Notes: generated by a model from the letters alone, not told the origin. A stretch of 42,035 nt of DNA from Pseudomonadota bacterium (GCA_043798385.1 JAZDOU010000334.1:1-42035); one strand, 5' to 3'; shown: positions 4,291 to 31,285, counted from the stretch's first letter. Made by a program: numbers and translations.

Positions 4291-4827
4291 ATGAAGGTCC
4301 TGTATATTTCCGGAAGCCCCAGAAAAAACAGTAACACCGATTACCTGCTCAAAGAAATCCTATCCGTAACAGGGGGAGAGCTTCTCAAAATCGCCGACTA
4401 TCATGTTGATCCCTGTCGCTCCTGTTGGACCTGCTTAAAATCGGGCAAATGCGCCATTGACGATGACATGAGCCGGAAGCTCATCCCCCTGATCCTGGCC
4501 GCCGATATCATGGTCCTGGGCACTCCGGTCTATTTCAACAATGTATCCGGGCAACTCAAGGTGTTGATGGATCGTACCTGGTGTCTCAAGGGAAAGCTGC
4601 GAAACAAGATCGGCGGCACCGTCGTGGTGGGCCGGAGAGATGGCATTGAAAGCGCCATAACGGCGATTCAGGCCTTTTTCCTCAAACACGAGATGATCCC
4701 GGCCAACCGAGGGGTCCATGGCCGAGCTTTTGCACTGGGAGAAATAGGGGATGATCCGGAGGCTATCGAATCGGCCAGGAAGTTGGGGGCACGGTTAATC
4801 GAGATGGCAAACTTGTTTGGTCTTTAA
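4291..4827 (+). CDS. Flavodoxin-like fold NADPH-dependent FMN reductase / iron-sulfur flavoprotein
   Basis: MKVLYISGSPRKNSNT N-terminus, Cys cluster CRSCWTCLKSGKC, GTPVYFNNVSG motif. Confidence 0.8.
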   Translation: MKVLYISGSPRKNSNTDYLLKEILSVTGGELLKIADYHVDPCRSCWTCLKSGKCAIDDDMSRKLIPLILAADIMVLGTPVYFNNVSGQLKVLMDRTWCLKGKLRNKIGGTVVVGRRDGIESAITAIQAFFLKHEMIPANRGVHGRAFALGEIGDDPEAIESARKLGARLIEMANLFGL

Positions 4828-5363: not shown

Positions 5364-5567
5364 ATGAGATGCATTGACCAGGGAACCATAAAAATCTTTC
5401 TCATCAAAGATGATTTTAAGGGTCGTTATTGGATCATCCAGGAAAGGAGCACCATAACTTCTACCGTTTCTCTGGAAGAAGCCGTAAGACTGTTAAAGAG
5501 CGAAACGTTTGATCTTATTGTTTCGGAACCGCATAACCTTTTTATCTTAGATTCCCCTTATAAGTAA
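5364..5567 (+). CDS. Small half-receiver-like protein (paralog of 22239..22505)
   Basis: 67 aa. Shares (I/V)KI..I..D(F/Y)...Y.I(I/V)Q......ST..L..AV..LK...FDLI(V/I)SEP.N with the ORF at 22239. Confidence 0.5.
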   Translation: MRCIDQGTIKIFLIKDDFKGRYWIIQERSTITSTVSLEEAVRLLKSETFDLIVSEPHNLFILDSPYK

Positions 5568-5587
5568 TTAATTAAGGAATTTGCGTT

Positions 5588-6331
5588 ATGAAACCGATCG
5601 AAAAACATGCCGTACAAATTTCGGAAGCCGTCCAACTGACCCATCCTCCTGTTGGCTTGAAGTTTTTAGAGTCCCTTGAACCCTGGAAAGATACACCGGT
5701 GGCCCAGGGCCATCGATTTTGCCAATTGATCATGCGGGCGCGGCAAGGGGAAGAATTAATCCTGACCCCGGAATCCATTTCCTGTCCGGGGGCAGCGGCA
5801 GCCTTGGGTTTTAAGCCCCTGCCCCCAAATCTGGAAGCCGGGCAGATGTTGAAAGCCTTTGGTATTTTTAAAGATCCCGGGAAAGGGGCCTTGACCATCA
5901 GGGCCATGCCCCGACTGGAACTGGGAAAGTTCAAAGGGATTATAGCCGGTCCTATCGAGCGCCTTTCCTTTGATCCGGACGTGGTTATTGTGGAAGATGA
6001 AGTGGAAAAACTGATGTGAATGGCCCTGGCCTATTTAAACACCCGCGGAGGAAGATTGGATTTCACCACCGCAATCCTTCAAGCCATGTGTGTGGATACG
6101 GCCGTCATCCCTTATATGCAAAACCGGTTGAACATGACTTTCGGTTGTTACGGCTGCCGGGATGCAACCGATATCCAACCCGGCGAAGCGGCCCTGGGAT
6201 TTCCGGCGGGAGATCTGGCTGATTTAACTGAACATCTGACTCATTTAGCCCAAAAGGCCATCCCCAATTGCCGGGCAAAAGCCATTTATCATTCCTTGCG
6301 AACCAGGCTGGACATACCTGCTGAAAAATAA
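5588..6331 (+). CDS. DUF169-family protein interrupted by one in-frame TGA (6017-6019)
   Basis: ORFs 5588..6019 and 6020..6331 are in the same frame and together give the length expected for DUF169 (about 245 aa). The junction reads ...VEDEVEKLM-TGA-MALAYLNTRGG. Confidence 0.55.
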
Positions 6332-8794: not shown

Positions 8795-8914
8795 CCCAAC
8801 CCGGACCAGCCGGAACCAAGAGGTGGATATATAAACCATAATTGGTCCGGGTCCAGGGCGTGTTCTTTAATAAATTCTATCCATTTTGCGTAGATTTTTA
8901 TTCTTTAGTTACTA
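8795..8914 (+). repeat. 131-bp-family intergenic repeat, divergent short copy (copy D)
   Basis: Shares CCCAACCCGGACCAGCCGGAACCA...TGGTCCGGGT...GTTCTTTAATAAATTCT.TCCATTTTGCGTAGA.TTTTATTCTT.AGT.ACTA with the copies at 13611, 14650 and 24625. Confidence 0.85.
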
Positions 8915-12319: not shown

Positions 12320-13534
12320 ATGGATAGAACCATAAACAAAAAAAGATGGCTCCTTTATTTGGTTTTAGCAACCATCTTAAGCGTCCTGTTGGTTTCTCCC
12401 TATCTTTTTGGGGAAGGGAAAAAAGAGGATATCCATTCTCTGAAGGAACTGATCGAACGCTATGATTCCGCCCGGTGCCAGGAGTGTCATCCGAAGCAAT
12501 ACGCCCAATGGGAGAAGTCCCATCATGCCCGTCCCTTAATGGGTATGGATGACTGGATCTTCATGTCTAAATACCTCAAGGAAGGGGTCCTGGCCGTGAA
12601 AGACCCTAAGAAGGCCACCAAGGCCAATTTCCCTTGTGCCAAATGCCATCTTCCTCAATTAAACCAAGCTACCGATGCAGTTGCTGCCGAACTGGCGGCA
12701 GCCGTCCTTCGTGATGATAAAAAACTCGTCAGACAATTAAACATCGGCTGCCTGGTCTGTCATCAGGATAAGGCCGTGATCCACCACAAACCGGAACCGG
12801 GCGTCTTATACGGGAAGAGGTTCCGGCGCCGCTTTGATGATCACAAAGGGGATGTAAAAAAGGTGCGGGAAAGCACTTTTATGAAATCGGCCCTCTTTTG
12901 CGGCCAATGCCACGGTTTAGGCCCCAATCTGGAATCTGAGATTCCGACCCAATGCGCCACCCTCTACGGCAGTTATCTCCATGCCTATATCCCATCGGGC
13001 GGATCTCAAACGTGTCAGGACTGCCACATGCCCAAGCGGGATCACACCTGCCTGCCCAATTTTAACAATCGAGAAGAAACAGCGGCCCGATTAAAAAATG
13101 CCCTGCCCATGGAAGTACAAACCCTGGGTTATATCTTTCAGATAGAAGAAGAAAAATACCAGCCTATGGCCGTTGTCAAGACCCGAATTACCAACAAAGC
13201 CGGGCATCGTATCCCTGATGGGTGACCGACCAGAACCCGGGTGGTCCTGGAAGTGACTGCATACCTAACGAACGGACAGAAGTTTTTTCAGACAGAAAAA
13301 ATTTACATGCCCCAGGCGACCGACAGCCGCAGCCCGCTCATGGCCCTTGGACCGGATAAAAAACTCGGCCTGATCCGGGATACCAGTATCCAGCCTTTTG
13401 CTCCCAAAGAAGAGACCTTTGAGATACCGGTGCCCAAGGGTGCCATCTGGTTGGATATAAACCTGAGTTACCAACCCCGGCCTGGAAATATTTATCCTAT
13501 CCATAGTATTAAGAAAAAAGTAACCATGAATTAA
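12320..13534 (+). CDS. Pentahaem c-type cytochrome, reading frame continued through an in-frame TGA (13223-13225)
   Basis: Signal anchor. Five CXXCH motifs (CQECH, CAKCH, CLVCH, CGQCH, CQDCH). ORFs 12320..13225 and 13241..13534 are in the same frame. The junction NKAGHRIPDG-TGA-PTRTRVVLEV lies inside what looks like one conserved GHxxPxG....R..LEV motif. Confidence 0.6.
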
Positions 13535-13610
13535 ATGGCTGAATGGCCCCGTTCCTAATATCGTCATGCCGTCAAAGCAGGAATTCAGGAATATTACCGG
13601 CTGGACTTTT

Positions 13611-13741
13611 TAGTGACTTAAGAATAAAATTCTACGCAAAATGGAAAGAATTTATTAAAAAACAAGCCGTTGACCCGGACCAACCAAGGGTTTTAACACA
13701 TTTTGTATATCCAATTTTGGTTCCGGCTGGTCCGGGTTGGG
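13611..13741 (-). repeat. 131-bp intergenic repeat, copy A (inverted relative to B, C and D)
   Basis: Its reverse complement matches copy B at 130 of 131 positions. Confidence 0.9.
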
Positions 13742-13779
13742 AAACCGTTAAATTCTATTGGTCAAAACAGCTCAAGAGG

Positions 13780-14640
13780 TTATGAAAGACTTTTAGCGAG
13801 GGTATCCAGTATCTTTTGGTTTAAACCGAGGGCCGCCCCGTCCAACCCCAGACTCAGACCCAGCAACTGGGGATAAAGGAGAGAAGGCACTCCCTGATTT
13901 TCGTCCGCTTCTTTTCCCATTATTTCCCCGACCCGGTCAAACTGCATTTGACAATGGGTACAGGCCACACAGAGCACATCAGCTCCGGATTCTTTGGCAC
14001 TTTCTATTTTCTTGGTGGTCAGTTCCAGGGACAAATCATTATTTTTACCCCACAAGGACTCCCCGCAACATTGGGTCCTGAGCGGATAATCCACACTGAC
14101 GGCACCAGTGACTTCAACCAGCCTCTCAAATTTACTCGGATTAAAGGGGTTATCAAATTGAACCACATCGCGGGGGCGTAAGATATGACAACCATAATGG
14201 GCGGCAACCTTGAGGTTCTGAAACGGCCGGACATTTTTCCCCAAGATACTTTCCGGAACGATATCCTCAGAAAGGACATTTAAAAGGTGCTTTATTTCCA
14301 CCTGCTCCGGATAGCGCAGACCTTCACCTTTTAACCATTCATTGACTTCCTTCAAAAGAAGCTCATTTTTTCTGAGTAAATGATCCGCATAGCGTAAGGT
14401 CCCGTAACAACACTGGCAAAGACATAACAAGGGCAATCCCTTTTCGCCGCTTATGGCAATATTTCGGGCCGAGGAGAAGATAAAGGCCCTGAAGTCCAGA
14501 AAACGGATCGGGTATCCACAACAATTAAATTCCAGATCCTCTAATTCAAGACCCAAGGTATTGAGCACCAGGCGGCTGGCCATTTCATACTGGGGGACGT
14601 AATAAGGGACCTTGCATCCTGGGAATAAGCTGTATTTCAT
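13780..14640 (-). CDS. HdrB-like CCG-domain protein (heterodisulfide reductase subunit B family)
   Basis: ORF trimmed to MKYSLFPGCK. Two CCG-type motifs (NCCGYP, TQCCGES) plus CxxC-rich segments. GGGAG SD supplied by the end of repeat copy B. Confidence 0.8.
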   Translation of the reverse strand: MKYSLFPGCKVPYYVPQYEMASRLVLNTLGLELEDLEFNCCGYPIRFLDFRAFIFSSARNIAISGEKGLPLLCLCQCCYGTLRYADHLLRKNELLLKEVNEWLKGEGLRYPEQVEIKHLLNVLSEDIVPESILGKNVRPFQNLKVAAHYGCHILRPRDVVQFDNPFNPSKFERLVEVTGAVSVDYPLRTQCCGESLWGKNNDLSLELTTKKIESAKESGADVLCVACTHCQMQFDRVGEIMGKEADENQGVPSLLYPQLLGLSLGLDGAALGLNQKILDTLAKSLS

Positions 14641-14649
14641 GATTTTTCT

Positions 14650-14780
14650 CCCAACCCGGACCAGCCGGAACCAAAATTGGATATACAAAATGTGTTAAAA
14701 CCCTTGGTTGGTCCGGGTCAACGGCTTGTTCTTTAATAAATTCTTTCCATTTTGCGTAGAATTTTATTCTTAAGTCACTA
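14650..14780 (+). repeat. 131-bp intergenic repeat, copy B
   Basis: See copy A. Its last 11 nt overlap the stop and the last three codons of the upstream minus-strand gene (14770..). Confidence 0.9.
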
Positions 14781-16464
14781 AATCCCCTTCGCCGGGAGTC
14801 CGGCTTTTCCCCTGCTGAAAAGCCGTATTTTTAAGTTCAAACAGGATATCGGTTACCCGGATCCCCTGGGGGCAGGATTCCTGACAATTATAACAACCCA
14901 GGCAGTCCCAGACCATCCTGGCTCCCAAGACGTTATCCTGAAGTCCGTATTTTAAACTTTGCATAATAAGATGCGGCAGCAATCCAAGTTTTTCCAGAGG
15001 ATTTTTATAATTAACCACCACCGGGCAGGCGTTGGTACAGGTCATACAGGTAAAACAGGCATAAAAAGTGCTGGCCTGTAAGGAAAGACCGACACTCTGG
15101 GTAAATTTTTTCCCGGAAGGCGGTAGTTGGATAACGGCATTTTTTCTATCCCAATCAAATTTCTCCACAAAGGCATCTCGTGTCCGGGTGAAAAGTTCAG
15201 GGCATCCCCGATGGCTCAAATCCTTATCCATAACAAACCACTGGTCCTGAAGAACGATCCCCACCGGACAGACGGTGCTGCAACGGTAACAATCGGTGCA
15301 GATGGATTCCCCTTCCCGGATCATCGGAAGAGTTGAGAGGGACGACCCGTTTTTATTGTTCAGGGTAGTTAAAGCCTTCAATTTTTCCGAAGGCAGGATT
15401 TGGATATTGGGAATGGATTGGTAAACAGGTCCCACGGAACAATGGATACTGCAGGTAGCGCAGTGGGTACAGGCATCCAGCTCAATAGCCTGAACCGTGG
15501 CTATATTGGCGGGAGAGGCCTTGGGTCGATCCATCACACCGTTGATCAGAAGCACCAGAGGGCTGGTCAGGATATGGAAAAATTTGGTAAACGGCAGCAA
15601 GGCCAGCCCGAGAAAACAGACCAGAAAATGGAAATAAAGAAGGGACTCCCGGATGGTTTTCTGACTCAAGATAAGGGCCGATGGGGTGATTGCCTTGGCC
15701 AGCCCGTAAGACACAAAAGCCGCCGTCGGCCTGGAATGACAGGAGGCACAATTGAGGACATGGACCTCCCGGCCTTTGGTCAAGACAGCGGCCTCCGTGG
15801 ATGGGGTCTTGGGGAAGACCACGGCAAAGTCTCTGGCCCAATAGGCCCTCAGGGCATCGGCTTCCTGTTCGTCGGATATGGAAGAATATTCGGAAACCAT
15901 TTCCTCATACCGCTGGTGGGAAACGATCTTGGTGGCCTCTAAAAAAAACCCGGAAAGGGCGATCAAGGCCAGAATCACCAGGGCATAGATATCCGCACTC
16001 CCCGTGGTCAGACGCATGATCCGGTTGGTGATCCGGCGATAGGCGGCGATGGCCAGGCCTAACAACATCATGGCCCCGAACAGATTCCTCAGAAAAAGAA
16101 AAGGATTGAGGGTCGAGAAGTATTCGGGAAAGAGCTTCTGGCTGACATAGCGATCCAGGGCATGCATAAGGAGCAGCAGGATAAACCCGTAGGCGATACA
16201 AAAATGCATGAACCAGCGGACAAACCCTTCCCGGGTTATCTGCTTCTGAAGGAAGACCTCCAAAAACCAGATCTTAATGAGATGAAACAGTTTTAGGCTG
16301 AAAAAGACGGAGAAAACTCCTTTGAGGGCCTCTAAAAATCGTTTAGGAGCGGATATTCTTTCGGAGGGATCACCGGTCCACCGTCGAAACCACCTTAAAA
16401 TCTTGACCCCTGTCCCGATTCCAAAAATAATCAAAGCGGCATATAAACTGATTTTAAAAAACAT
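14770..16464 (-). CDS. Membrane NarI/DsrM/HdrE-like domain fused to HdrC-like double 4Fe-4S ferredoxin domains
   Basis: The N-terminal ~300 aa have five or six TM helices with conserved His residues. The C-terminal half carries four CxxCxxCxxxCP-type motifs (CTHCATCSIHC, CTDCYRCSTVCP, CFTCMTCTNACP, CLGCYNCQESCP). Confidence 0.75.
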   Translation of the reverse strand: MFFKISLYAALIIFGIGTGVKILRWFRRWTGDPSERISAPKRFLEALKGVFSVFFSLKLFHLIKIWFLEVFLQKQITREGFVRWFMHFCIAYGFILLLLMHALDRYVSQKLFPEYFSTLNPFLFLRNLFGAMMLLGLAIAAYRRITNRIMRLTTGSADIYALVILALIALSGFFLEATKIVSHQRYEEMVSEYSSISDEQEADALRAYWARDFAVVFPKTPSTEAAVLTKGREVHVLNCASCHSRPTAAFVSYGLAKAITPSALILSQKTIRESLLYFHFLVCFLGLALLPFTKFFHILTSPLVLLINGVMDRPKASPANIATVQAIELDACTHCATCSIHCSVGPVYQSIPNIQILPSEKLKALTTLNNKNGSSLSTLPMIREGESICTDCYRCSTVCPVGIVLQDQWFVMDKDLSHRGCPELFTRTRDAFVEKFDWDRKNAVIQLPPSGKKFTQSVGLSLQASTFYACFTCMTCTNACPVVVNYKNPLEKLGLLPHLIMQSLKYGLQDNVLGARMVWDCLGCYNCQESCPQGIRVTDILFELKNTAFQQGKSRTPGEGDLVT

Positions 16465-16482
16465 GGTCCCTTTCCCTGAATA

Positions 16483-16680
16483 GTTCTCATCCGGAAACGA
16501 TCTTTTCGGATGAGAACATACATCTGCCGGCTATCCTCTTTGGCCAGAAATCCTTTAAAAAGGATTTCTGGCGAGAGCTTCATGCCGGTCCCCGAATGGG
16601 GACCTTAGCATAGGTCGATAAAATCGACCGGCCGAAATCGAGGTGTTTCCATCCGAAAATTCGAATTTCCGGATGGAAAC
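16483..16680 (+). repeat. Mosaic array of five hairpins (left copy)
   Basis: Hairpins at 16483-16517, 16542-16572, 16587-16604, 16613-16629 and 16645-16680. Hairpins 1, 2 and 5 recur in reverse order and orientation at 19757-19909. Confidence 0.85.
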
Positions 16681-16902
16681 TGAATACTATCTTTATAGCC
16701 TGCGCCCATTCCCTCTGACCCTTTAACGATTCACTACCGGCCGGGGAATTCAGTTTAATTTGGGAAATGTATCACAAGAATTTCTTGTAATCAAATAAAA
16801 AAATAATACGGGGATTAAAAGCGACTTTATCAATTATCTATCCATATCAGCCTATTTTTTTATCGCCGATCCGAATAAACCCGTTATTTTTTAAAGAAGG
16901 GC

Positions 16903-16937: not shown

Positions 16938-18260
16938 ATGAAGTCCACACCGGCCTTTTTAAAAATTATCCTGGATAGTATCACCGAGGGGGTCTTTACA
17001 ATCAATAAAGATTGGATGATTACCTCCTTCAATCAAGCGGCCGAAAAAATAACCGGATTTCCAAGAGAAAAGGCTATCGGCAAAAAATGTTTTGAGGTCT
17101 TTCAGGCCGATATCTGTCAGGAGGCCTGTGCCCTGGCCCGGACCTTGAAAACTGGAAAAAATGTGGTGGATCTGCCGGTCAATATTTTAGATGCCCATGG
17201 AAAGGTTATTCCCATCGGCGTAACGACTGCCGTCCTGAAAGACAGCCAGGGCCGGATGATGGGCGGGGTCGAGACCTTTAGGGATTTGAGCACTATCGAG
17301 GCCCTGCGCAAAGAAATCACCCAAAAGTATACCTTAAACGACATTATCAGCAAGAGTGATATCCTACAGAAAATTTTTAATAATCTTCCTGACATCGCCC
17401 AAAGCGACAGCACTGTTCTGATTCAGGGTCCCAGCGGTTCCGGCAAGGAACTGCTCGCCAAAGCCATTCACGAACTGAGTCCGAGGAAGGGAAAACCCTT
17501 TGTGGCCATCAATTGCAGCGCTTTGCCGGAGACCCTGCTTGAATCTGAGCTTTTCGGCTATGTCCGCGGGGCTTTTACGGATGCCAAAAAGGATAAACCC
17601 GGAAAATTTTCCCAAGCCGATTCGGGAACGTTGTTTTTAGACGAAATCGGGGATCTGCCCCTGAAGGTACAAGCCAAGTTATTACGAGTCCTTCAGGAAA
17701 AGACCTATGAACCTCTGGGTTCTAATGTCAGTAAACCGGTCAAGGCCCGATTGATCTCGGCCACCAATAAAAATCTCAAAGGTCTGGTCAAGGGCGGCCT
17801 ATTCAGAGATGACCTGTATTACCGGCTGAAAGTGATCCAAATCGATCTACCGTCCTTAAGAGAACGCCGCGAAGACATCCCTTTGTTGATCGAACATTTT
17901 CTGAACAAATTCAACCTTAGGACAGGCAAAAAAATCAATCAGTTATCTCCGAAGGCCCTCCATATTTTAATGAATTATGAGTACCCGGGAAATATCCGGG
18001 AGTTGGAAAATATCATTGAGCACGCCTTTGTTCTCTGCCATGGTTCGACCATCCAACTGGCCCATCTGCCGCCAGAACTGCCCAAGGAAACCAGGGAGAT
18101 AGACGATCTCCAACCTCCTTTTGAAAATAAATTAAAAGACCGGGAACGGGAGCTCATTCAACAGACCCTGGAAAAATATCACGGCAACCGCACCCTGACC
18201 GCCAAGGAATTGGGGATCCATCCCACCACCCTGTGGCGAAAACTAAAACACCCCGCTTAA
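16938..18260 (+). CDS. Sigma-54-dependent Fis-family transcriptional activator with N-terminal PAS domain
   Basis: PAS domain (ITEGVFTINKDW), AAA+ Walker A GPSGSGKE, ESELFGY...GAFTDA loop, C-terminal Fis helix-turn-helix (LTAKELGIHPTTLWRKL). Confidence 0.9.
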   Translation: MKSTPAFLKIILDSITEGVFTINKDWMITSFNQAAEKITGFPREKAIGKKCFEVFQADICQEACALARTLKTGKNVVDLPVNILDAHGKVIPIGVTTAVLKDSQGRMMGGVETFRDLSTIEALRKEITQKYTLNDIISKSDILQKIFNNLPDIAQSDSTVLIQGPSGSGKELLAKAIHELSPRKGKPFVAINCSALPETLLESELFGYVRGAFTDAKKDKPGKFSQADSGTLFLDEIGDLPLKVQAKLLRVLQEKTYEPLGSNVSKPVKARLISATNKNLKGLVKGGLFRDDLYYRLKVIQIDLPSLRERREDIPLLIEHFLNKFNLRTGKKINQLSPKALHILMNYEYPGNIRELENIIEHAFVLCHGSTIQLAHLPPELPKETREIDDLQPPFENKLKDRERELIQQTLEKYHGNRTLTAKELGIHPTTLWRKLKHPA

Positions 18261-19503: not shown

Positions 19504-19746
19504 ATGCCAAGAAGAGATGGTACCGGCCCGGCCGGAAAAGGTTCTGGTGGAGGTTTTGGATCAGGAAGAGGCCTGGGCGGAGGGGGAGGACTTGGATCAG
19601 GAAGAGGCCTGGGCGGAGGGGCCGGCATGGGAGCCGGCGGGAATTGTCTCTGCCCTAAATGCGGCAATAAAAGCTCCCATGGCCGGGGAGTACCCTGCAA
19701 CACCCTGAAGTGTTCCAAATGCGGCACGACCATGGTTAGGGAATAG
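19504..19746 (+). CDS. DUF5320-family protein with Gly-rich repeat and C-terminal CxxC...CxxC zinc-ribbon-like motif
   Basis: AGGAGG SD. MPRRDGTGPAGKG N-terminus typical of DUF5320. CPKCG...CSKCG. Confidence 0.75.
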   Translation: MPRRDGTGPAGKGSGGGFGSGRGLGGGGGLGSGRGLGGGAGMGAGGNCLCPKCGNKSSHGRGVPCNTLKCSKCGTTMVRE

Positions 19747-19756
19747 AGATTAAATA

Positions 19757-19909
19757 GTTTCCATCCGGAAATTCAAATTTCCGGATGGAAATACCTGGAT
19801 TCTGACTCGAAGCTCTGGCCAGAAACCCCTTTTTCAAAGGGTTTCTGGCCATGGAGACAAATCGACCACGGTATGTTCTCATCCGGAAAGATCATTTCCG
19901 GATGAGAAC
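19757..19909 (-). repeat. Mosaic hairpin array (right copy, inverted relative to 16483-16680)
   Basis: Hairpins at 19758-19791, 19817-19850 and 19875-19909 correspond to hairpins 5, 2 and 1 of the left array. Confidence 0.85.
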
Positions 19910-20107
19910 TAAATAGAAAGGAATATCTTCCCGGCAAAAACCGGATGAGCCCCGCCCATTGGGGGGCCACCTCTCACTCCGCCATGGGTGGGGCTCAAAC
20001 TCCTTGCTCTCTGTGAACTCTGTGAGAGATAAAAGGGTTTTTGAGAAAAATGGTTTTTTTAAAGATAAATTTGAAAAAATAAAAAATTCTTGAAAGGAGG
20101 TTCAGTT

Positions 20108-23417: not shown

Positions 23418-23882
23418 ATGTCATCAGATAGGGCCCATTTTTACACCATGCCGCTTTCTAAAGATAAAGACGAACCAGGTTCCATTCCCGGTCAGGCCGT
23501 TCAGCCCTGGCTGGGCCCTTATAACGAAGGAATCATCGACCAACCGGACGGGCTGGCCTACGTGACCGGACCTTGCGGCGACTCTATGGAGATCTCATTA
23601 AGAATCCGGGAGAATCGGATCACGGACAGCCGTTTCCGGGTCAAAGGATGTGTCGTCAGCCGGGCCTGCGCCTCGGCAGCCGCGGCCCTGGCCAAAGGGA
23701 AAGAGTTGGAAGAAGCCTGGGATATTGATGAAAAAGAGATTGCCAAAAGCCTGCCGGGGCTTCCGGTGGATCACCGGCATTGCGCCCTGCTGGCCCGGGA
23801 CACACTACGTCAGGCTATTGGAAGATATATTAAGCCGTCATGCCACGATAGCGGCGTGACACTACCAAATCATGAAAAGTAG
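23418..23882 (+). CDS. IscU/NifU-N-terminal-like Fe-S scaffold protein
   Basis: GPCGDSMEISL, KGCVVSRACASA and DHRHCALLARDTL give the three-Cys U-type scaffold pattern. The last ~16 codons derive from a repeat unit that recurs 83 bp downstream. Confidence 0.75.
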   Translation: MSSDRAHFYTMPLSKDKDEPGSIPGQAVQPWLGPYNEGIIDQPDGLAYVTGPCGDSMEISLRIRENRITDSRFRVKGCVVSRACASAAAALAKGKELEEAWDIDEKEIAKSLPGLPVDHRHCALLARDTLRQAIGRYIKPSCHDSGVTLPNHEK

Positions 23883-24232
23883 GCTCATTAGACTTTGAAC
23901 TCTATTTTCGAACTAAGCCGTCATGCCACGATAGTGGCGTGACACCACCAGCCGGTCGGGCCGCTCGACGCGGCTCCCGAATGGGAGCCTTTCTATAAGG
24001 TCGGCAAAGCCGACCGTCTGTCGAGCTTTCGAAGAGGCTCCCATCCGGGAGCCGATCTGCCGACCCTAAAAGGAGGCTTCCCTTCGGAAGCCGGGACATG
24101 AAAATAAGGCCGGTAGAAGATTGAACCTCGAACCTTATTTTCGAACTAGTCGGAAGGGAAAAGGGAGTTGGACTAATTTAGAAGCCGGGTTCCCTTTGGG
24201 GAACCAACTCCGGCTAAGAAGGAGGAAGGCAT
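23883..24232. repeat. REP/BIME-like mosaic of short GC-rich hairpins and direct repeats
   Basis: Hairpins include GGCTCCCgaatGGGAGCC, GGTCGGCaaaGCCGACC, GGCTCCCatccGGGAGCC, GGCTTCCcttcGGAAGCC and GGTTCCCtttgGGGAACC. The region is bounded by TATTTTCGAACTA at 23903 and 24136. Confidence 0.8.
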
Positions 24233-24624: not shown

Positions 24625-24755
24625 CCCAACCCGGACCAGCCGGAACCAAAATTGGATATTCGAAACGTTTTAAATACCTTGGTTGGTCCGGGTCAACGGC
24701 TTGTTCTGCAATAAATTCTTTCCATTTTGCGTAGAATTTTATTCTTAAGTCACTA
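24625..24755 (+). repeat. 131-bp intergenic repeat, copy C
   Basis: Same ends and stem as copies A and B, but a different loop sequence. It ends on the A of the ATG at 24755. Confidence 0.9.
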
Positions 24756-30679: not shown

Positions 30680-31285
30680 ATGACGGCAAAAGTCGGTAAA
30701 CCCGCACCGGACTTTGAAGTGAACGCCTTTATCGACGGTGGTTTCGAGAATATCAGCCTTTCCAAATTTAAGGGACAGTGGGTGGTGCTCTGTTTTTATC
30801 CCGGTGATTTCACCTTTGTCTGACCGACCGAGTTATCGGCGGTCGCCGTAAAATACGATGAATTTAAGGCCCTCGGAGTCCAGGTCCTTTCGCTGAGTAC
30901 GGACAGCCGTTTTATACACAAGATTTGGAATGAAGAAGAACTTTCCAAGATGGTCAAGGGCGGCATTCCCTTCCCCATGCTCTCCGATGCCGGAGGACTG
31001 GTGGGAAAGGTCTATGGGGTTTATGATGATGAGGCCGGGGTTGACATCAGGGGGCGTTTCCTGATAGACCCGGATGGAATCATTCAGGCCATGGAAATTG
31101 TCACTCCCCCCGTCGGCCGGAACATCTCGGAACTCCTTAGGCAGGTCAAGGCCTTCCAGCATGTTCGGGCCACCGGTGAAGCCACACCTTCAGGATGGCA
31201 ACCGGGAAAAACGACCCTCACACCCGGACCGGATTTAGTGGGCAAGGTCTGGAAGGTTTGGAAACCGGAAATGGCCTTTGAATGA
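30680..31285 (+). CDS. Peroxiredoxin (AhpC/Prx family) with TGA (30821-30823) at the peroxidatic Cys position: selenocysteine-containing Prx
   Basis: AAGGAGG SD and ATG at 30680. GDFTFV-TGA-PTE corresponds to the universal FTFVCPTE motif. The frame stays open to 31285 (ORFs 30542..30823 and 30950..31285 are in the same frame). A hairpin at 30822-30844 sits immediately 3' of the TGA. Confidence 0.85.

Follow-up and report, generated by a model that had tools for sequence, protein, structure and literature searches.

An hdrB-like gene between inverted copies of a dispersed 131-nucleotide repeat, most probably a small non-autonomous mobile element

When a redox gene lies inside a near-perfect inverted repeat, a switch comes to mind, yet the inverted repeat that encloses an hdrB-like gene on a 42,035-nt contig (the whole stretch of DNA that was analysed, hereafter the window) can be explained by a high-copy repeat. 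The two arms very probably arose by separate, recent insertion of a single repeat of about 131 nt that is non-coding and non-autonomous, and their inverted arrangement is then incidental rather than a programmed switch. Dozens of copies of this repeat are spread across this genome and those of related anaerobes, so that the pair is, in all likelihood, a side effect of a small mobile element rather than a dedicated gene switch.

The inverted arms and their neighbourhood

A repeat search of the window delimits two arms, at 13609-13742 and 14649-14782, which are reverse complements of each other over 134 nt, are identical at 133 of these positions, and lie 906 nt apart. Direct comparison places the sole mismatch at 13660, where copy A carries a derived A, against G in the reverse complement of copy B at 14731. 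The original prediction of near-identical inverted repeats with one mismatch is thus borne out, down to the position of the AAAAAAC/AAAGAAC difference, and the exact alignment that it asked for gives an identity no lower than the hand alignment. A 31-nt core of the repeat had 0 expected matches in 100 shuffles, and the 134-nt match is therefore far beyond chance. The match breaks off sharply at its edges, with agreement at none of the next four bases outward and at one of six inward, and the limits of A/B identity are also the limits of the element in the family profile (13611-13741 and 14650-14780). The element proper is exactly 131 nt by this profile, the arm size first proposed, and the A/B match stretches to 134 nt.

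Exactly four copies of the element are found in the window, by whole-window repeat search and family profile (Table 1), among 47 ORFs in which a Pfam scan recognises redox, metal-resistance and regulatory genes. As had been described, the HdrB-like coding sequence is the sole long ORF between the arms, and copy B covers the last three codons and the stop (L-V-T-TAA) of the upstream HdrE/C-like gene. The 3' end of copy B constitutes this new L-V-T-stop, and its 5' end abuts the native GGAG ribosome-binding site (RBS) of hdrB. Copy A starts 38 nt past the hdrB stop, in the convergent gap before a multihaem cytochrome gene that ends at 13534. Copy C sits between a DUF5320 gene and an MBL-fold gene, the final base of the element being the A of the MBL start codon ATG, and copy D starts 4 nt past the stop of a thioredoxin-like gene and ends at the RBS of a DGC-domain gene. 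A second window protein has the accession MFH0788599.1 and belongs to the same MAG contig as the HdrB-like protein. Within the collections searched, this contig is the sole instance of its sequence. HdrB relatives at ≥90% (P0242, P0243 and P0244) come from Logan contigs of 2,827, 2,705 and 1,053 nt, respectively.

Table 1. Copies of the element in the window and the hdr genes next to the inverted pair
Feature	Coordinates	Strand	Evidence and remarks
Copy A	13611..13741	-	nhmmer E=3.5e-38, full length; element 5' CCCAACCC at 13741, ACTAA-3' at 13611
Copy B	14650..14780	+	hdrE/C-hdrB junction, antisense to operon; family profile and empty sites
Copy C	24625..24755	+	94% identical to B; 31-nt core search and profile
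Copy D	8795..8914	+	diverged subfamily, ~80-87% identical to B, shorter loop
HdrB-like gene, two CCG domains	13780..14640	-	MFH0788607.1; native position, sole gene between copies A and B
HdrE/HdrC-like fusion, 564 aa, NarI-like membrane and 4Fe-4S dicluster domains	14770..16464	-	ORF and Pfam

Empty sites at the hdr junction and elsewhere

The original prediction had named the footprint of a recent element insertion or gene conversion as one possible source of the arms, and this suggestion is supported: copy B is missing in five orthologous loci, and its excision restores the overlap of the two hdr genes. With the site empty in five loci, copy B is new whatever its source. At the P0002 and P0003 loci, where HdrB is 82% identical, hdrE/C and hdrB overlap by 4 nt (ATGA), and the P0002 locus is syntenic with the window, divergent sigma-54 activator included. 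The junction is likewise unbroken in a Desulfobacca sp. (L056, ...GGAGATCCAGGAGAAAAATCATGA...) and in L102 and L103 (...GGGAATTTAGGAGGCAACTCATGA...); the proposed check of related genomes for an hdrB without flanking elements thus finds an empty copy B site in these three. In-silico removal of 14650-14782 (133 nt) gives a 564-aa upstream protein that ends in ...EEKS* and a TCATGA overlap. At base level the filled site differs from the empty one by a net gain of 127 nt, with no duplication made. The exact breakpoints are ambiguous, since the native CCTAA (in element orientation) coincides with the first two and the last three or four bases of the element.

Through copy B, hdrE/C and hdrB are now separated by 129 nt at their former 4-nt stop/start overlap, and the HdrE/C-like protein, which ends in ...GDPGEKS* and ...GNLGGNS* in orthologues, ends in ...GDLVT* in the window. 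The insertion would thereby have broken the translational coupling of the two genes and rewritten the upstream C-terminus, and copy A would lie in the 3' untranslated region of the hdr operon. The idea that copy B supplies the RBS of hdrB did not survive the comparison. In the window GGAG stands 7 nt ahead of the ATG, and orthologues that lack the element have it too (L056 CCAGGAGAAAAATCATG, L102 TTAGGAGGCAACTCATG), so that copy B abuts or reconstitutes the native RBS and adds no new one. A composite transposon carrying hdrB was considered and ruled out, as hdrB is native beside hdrE/C in all orthologues.

In another MAG (L057:7808-7976, likewise L058 and L059) the same junction contains a 169-nt element that bears no relation to the repeat. 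Its terminal inverted repeats are 30 nt long and consist of GCTCAARG units, and in L057 it codes for a new C-terminus of the upstream protein (...KLKAQGSKLKG). Two different small elements have therefore hit this operon junction independently.

Other copies are polymorphic too. The site of copy D is empty in L104, where 23 nt separate the thioredoxin-like and DGC genes; the window itself is the empty site, at 38.71-38.81 kb, for an element copy of L024; and in the DUF5320-MBL spacer, L020 and the window hold insertions at different points, L020 being without the element at the point of copy C. Some element copies have other small repeats nested inside them.

Anatomy of the element

The alignment comprises 76 full-length copies, 120-134 nt in length, that come from metagenomes and several MAGs of Thermodesulfobacteriota. 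The ends of the element are sharp (5' CCCAACCCGGACCAGCCGGAACCAAAA, 3' ...GCGTAGAATTNTATTCTTAAGTNACTAA) and the flanks are unrelated among copies. The architecture is asymmetric: a near-invariant 5' end of 27 nt is followed by a stem-loop, a variable linker of about 20 nt, and a conserved 3' module of about 45 nt (AAATTCTATCCAWTTTGCGTAGAATTYTATTCTTAAGTNACTAA), which includes a conserved GTAG tetranucleotide and ends in ACTAA. Near-invariance of the 5' 27 nt holds also in copies recovered via the 3' module alone. A 9-bp inverted pair, ACCCGGACC/GGTCCGGGT, closes a loop that varies between subfamilies, GGTCCGGGT being invariant. The GC content of the element is 38%, against 50% in the genome.

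There are no terminal inverted repeats (TIRs), as the ends CCCAACCCGG... and ...AAGTNACTAA are not complementary and the inverted 9-mers are internal, and no matching flank bases that would indicate a target-site duplication (TSD) were found over the 76 copies. The element is therefore a misfit among classical cut-and-paste MITEs, and we infer its mobility from presence and absence of copies only. The 5' flank is AT-rich and nothing more specific (position -1 is A in 30 copies, T in 21, C in 17 and G in 6; TAA precedes 15 of 74). A TSD or a fixed target (TAA, TA, CTA or CCTAA) fits single copies and was rejected for the whole set. An enzyme encoded elsewhere in the genome may recognise the two different conserved ends and move the element without target duplication. 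Among approximately 100 loci, in fragments of 8-14 kb around copies, neither a kb-scale version of the element nor a recurrent protein that would mark an autonomous parent was seen, and viral contigs and PLSDB plasmids gave no matches to the element.

Could the element have been domesticated as a regulatory module, a kind of intergenic 'punctuation', its hairpin acting as a terminator or 3' stabiliser of mRNA and its 3' module as a promoter or leader directed outward, with copy A terminating or stabilising the hdr transcript? The strand of the element (+ of B) folds significantly better than shuffled sequence (z=-3.3), unlike its complement (z=-0.85); copy A stands behind hdrB in the hairpin orientation, with a T6 run past the stem; in many copies the start is 1-4 nt past a stop codon, and in several the end falls right at an RBS (ACTAAGGAGG); copies A and B have a weak sigma-70-like TTAATA-N18-TAGAAT pointing out of the 3' end; and the 27-mer and the 3' module are far more conserved than the interior. 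However, the stem is simply invariant, with zero compensatory base pairs by RNAalifold over 38 non-redundant copies; promoter and terminator matches in copies do not exceed shuffle expectation and are missing from copy C; copy B lies antisense inside an operon; and Rfam has no match in the window or at the loci with solo 5' motifs (see below) at gathering thresholds, with nothing but noise at E<=10. Between co-directional genes the copies show no bias of orientation (11 vs 8), which favours a selfish element over a punctuation role. We consider domestication improbable.

Three narrower candidates were also rejected. A conserved structured RNA finds no covariation in the same alignment of 38 copies. 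The promoter of one regulon is at odds with the unbiased orientation, and a scan for TGGCAC-N5-TTGC found 2 sites where 2.1 would be expected, neither of which coincides with a copy. As for an integron attC-like site, the terminal CCCAAC has, by eye, no GTTRRRY partner, and the copies are dispersed and not arrayed.

Distribution of the family

In GTDB genomes, 54 stretches contain the invariant 25-mer CCCAACCCGGACCAGCCGGAACCAA, and some 30 of them are contigs of one Thermodesulfobacteriota MAG (JBFMBU01); the remaining matches include assemblies CAZVHO01, CAZSTT01, CAZDYX01 and JACQYK01. With the 3' module alone as query, 42 additional loci were retrieved from metagenomes, a single sample accounting for about 28, and the subfamily of the window itself had 0 matches in JGI metagenomes. 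In 760 kb of fetched DNA the family profile has 115 matches. Gene context was checked for 44 copies, every one of which lies between genes or cuts no further into a gene than its last codons. A text search of the literature for the repeat family gave no matches, and the family appears to be an undescribed one within the wide class of small dispersed repeats of bacteria.

The NCBI label of the window is 'Pseudomonadota bacterium', and this stands against the gene content (Hdr-like genes, the DUF5320/NifX/ParA-Fe-S cluster and MetF-MvhD-HdrA-like genes) and against all close homologues, which are from Thermodesulfobacteriota or Desulfobacca-like organisms. In the genome MAG172 a second repeat family (GGTCTCGCAAAAAGT...GTCATTTCGA...) is nested in or beside element copies (L022:~5560-5760(-), L032:~4310-4470(-) and L047:~400-470), and several small repeat families occur in these genomes.

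The invariant 5' 27-mer (CCCAACCCGGACCAGCCGGAACCAAA) also stands alone, between genes, in MAGs of other phyla (L002:2850-2876, L028:6707-6733, L008:2237-2264 and L038:3341-3367), the hosts being Clostridia (between rpoZ and coaBC), KSB1 and another delta-type MAG. These solo copies have neither the rest of the element nor a downstream pairing partner, and about 0.001 matches would be expected by chance. Searches with Rfam, at gathering and at permissive thresholds, and a tRNA/tmRNA scan gave no explanation for these loci.

A bolder interpretation can be put forward, which we hold to be doubtful: the repeat would represent an undescribed class of non-autonomous element with near-invariant unlike ends, served by an enzyme that inserts without TIRs or TSD at CC^TAA-like sites, and the solo 27-mers of Clostridia, KSB1 and delta-type MAGs would be landing pads or relics. 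Its weaker variant would have the hdrB pair act as a recombinational switch.

The closest hdrB homologue is on L055, a complete contig of 1,024 nt that starts exactly at an element boundary (GGAGAAAAATCATG), and the closest DGC homologue, P0122, is on a contig of 752 nt. Such very short contigs suggest that the repeat routinely fragments short-read assemblies of these organisms. A repeat that breaks assemblies might also cause a chimeric join or a foldback in a MAG contig, and the inverted pair would then be an artefact. This is extremely unlikely: the order and orientation of the sigma-54 activator, hdrE/C and hdrB are those of the orthologous loci, both arms are in the middle of the contig with unique flanks, and the reading frames of both genes are intact over the junctions.

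Similarity of the two arms

Pairs of copies that bracket a single ORF are also seen elsewhere in approximately 760 kb of fetched loci, inverted in L039, L051, L101 and L085 and direct in L045. The arms of these other pairs are 60-92% identical, which indicates that nothing keeps flanking copies matched; A and B, at 99.2%, are the most similar inverted bracketing pair seen, and one direct neighbouring pair, in L091, reaches the same value. Such identity is found without linkage as well. At least 99% identity is shared by 8 of 28 pairs of unlinked copies in the CAZVHO MAG and by 16 of 378 in Ga0233425, copies identical at 100% are present at unlinked loci, and values of 99-100% are usual within young subfamilies of this element.

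Local gene conversion or copying between nearby copies, for example with an old copy A as the template of B, or homogenisation of the two, is a rather unlikely alternative, although the least improbable of those considered. It would account for A and B being much closer to each other than to copy C of the same contig, and for the L091 pair. The loci L057-59 have a partial 5' motif about 40 nt past the hdrB stop, a place similar to that of copy A and possibly orthologous to it, and the copy A site may thus be old. Against this, the arms of the motif differ and it may belong to another element; copy A is missing downstream of hdrB in L055, L056, L102 and L103; the B site is empty in the five loci discussed above, and B is new in any case; other neighbouring pairs have not been homogenised; and nearly identical unlinked pairs are common. 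With only four copies of the genome visible, local gene conversion and recent transposition are not separable. Two insertions from one master or a local hop fit better than segmental duplication, as A/B identity stops at the ends defined by the family. In the preferred scenario of recent transposition, A and B may share a single master copy as their source, or one may have hopped locally from the other, and their inverted placement around one gene would be incidental, a result of high copy density (four in 42 kb).

Inversion of the hdrB segment

The possibility that attracted attention to this locus was a genuine on/off cassette, in which recombination of the arms flips hdrB off the promoter of the hdr operon and produces phase-variable subpopulations. 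RecA-dependent recombination needs roughly 25-30 bp, and the inverted arms, nearly identical and less than 1 kb apart, are well over this length. MITE-type repeats are recombination hotspots, and inversion at Correia elements has been reported (PMC10969869). However, we found no positive evidence for a cassette. A Pfam scan of the 47 ORFs of the 42-kb contig detected no recombinase, resolvase, integrase, invertase or transposase; the arms are generic members of a dispersed family and not locus-specific sites; hdrB has the same orientation relative to hdrE/C in every orthologue as in the window; the decay of similar bracketing pairs speaks against selection for matched arms; and the segment is the whole coding sequence of an essential-looking complex subunit, not a promoter. 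A programmed switch is accordingly very unlikely.

General homologous inversion, mediated by RecA, across 131-134 bp is physically possible, and the A/B pair may be a passive substrate for it. It is plausible that recombination of the arms would invert hdrB away from its promoter, probably as a rare and deleterious event of the kind known for MITE-like repeats in general (PMC10969869).

Consequences for genome annotation

The family has several effects on what is read from these genomes: it breaks short-read assemblies, rewrites gene ends (as with L-V-T-stop), and splits translationally coupled genes. It also provides homology for rearrangements in Thermodesulfobacteriota MAGs. A family profile would improve the annotation of such MAGs, and the odd anatomy of the element, together with the unexplained occurrence of the 27-mer across phyla, is a modest lead to a new mobilising enzyme.

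Other features of the window

Three genes have an in-frame TGA. In a peroxiredoxin gene (30680-31285) the TGA at 30821-30823 falls exactly at the catalytic position (FTFV-TGA-PTE) and is directly followed, on its 3' side, by a hairpin of -18.6 kcal/mol over 60 nt; judging by the sequence, this is likely a selenocysteine peroxiredoxin called as a truncated gene. A multihaem cytochrome c gene (12320-13534) and a gene for a DUF169 protein (5588-6331) are each split into two ORFs by a TGA (13223-13225 and 6017-6019, respectively) with a hairpin directly downstream, and the cytochrome hairpin, UGACCGACC...GGUGGUC, resembles that of the peroxiredoxin. These two are candidate selenoproteins rather than pseudogenes.

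The regions 16481-16692, upstream of the hdr operon, and 19745-19911, upstream of a ParA/NifX-like operon that starts at 20090, have three long palindromes in common, in mirror arrangement. The palindromes, which include GTTTCCATCCGGAAATTCGAATTTCCGGATGGAAAC and GTTCTCATCCGGAAAGATCGTTTCCGGATGAGAAC, lie on either side of a PAS/sigma-54 activator gene (16938-18260) and probably serve as its enhancer-binding sites; near them, no canonical -24/-12 promoter with at most one mismatch was found. Two further repeats are a tandem 36-nt repeat at 19546-19617 (GGTGGAGGTTTTGGATCAGGAAGAGGCCTGGGCGGA twice), glycine-rich if translated, and a 37-nt direct repeat at 23831-23950 with a spacing of 83 nt.

Comparison with known systems

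Invertons (fimS, hin, promoter inversions of Bacteroides) resemble the A/B pair in that a short segment lies between inverted repeats and expression would depend on which way it points. Their repeats, however, are short (~10-35 bp) and locus-specific, they are served by a dedicated and usually adjacent tyrosine or serine recombinase, and they flip a promoter or alternative gene ends, whereas A and B are 131-nt copies of a dispersed element on a contig without a recombinase, around a complete native coding sequence.

REP and REPIN sequences, mobilised by RAYT (TnpA-REP, an HUH Y1 enzyme), are similar to the element in being extragenic and hairpin-forming, in making no TSDs, and in having subfamilies that are homogeneous per genome. 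The conserved GTAG of the 3' module is a further resemblance, and the subfamily of the window keeps traces of a longer palindrome, TTGGTT..GGTCCGGGT, which corresponds to the 5' arm in reverse complement, less 6 deleted nt. A REPIN is, however, a symmetric doublet of short REPs, and the element has an asymmetric, non-palindromic 3' half of about 60 nt and a conserved stem of 7-9 bp only; no recurrent ORF like a Y1 transposase was found in the 8-14 kb fragments around copies. PATEs, which derive from IS200/IS605, share with the element the lack of TIRs and TSDs, the unlike left and right ends, and the terminal or subterminal hairpins. They insert 3' of a fixed tetra- or pentanucleotide, whereas the 5' flank of the element is variable and only AT-rich, and the element further lacks a second subterminal hairpin that is GC-rich and conserved; among the loci there was no relative that bears TnpA/TnpB.

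Like the element, MITE-like repeats lie almost wholly between genes or at the very ends of genes, are polymorphic among lineages, form internal hairpins, may add codons or stops to adjacent genes, may carry promoter-like sequences, and serve as recombination substrates (PMC10969869, PMC3184786). The element departs from them in having neither TIRs nor TSDs, in that its two ends are different conserved modules, and in that no parent IS with matching ends was found. At 120-134 nt, non-coding and multicopy, it falls within the classical size definition of a MITE (less than about 600 bp), and it is like Correia/CREE of Neisseria, ERIC/RU-1 of enterobacteria, RPE of Rickettsia and Chunjie of Geobacter, all of which are about 100-200 nt long, non-coding, multicopy, and richer in AT than the genome.
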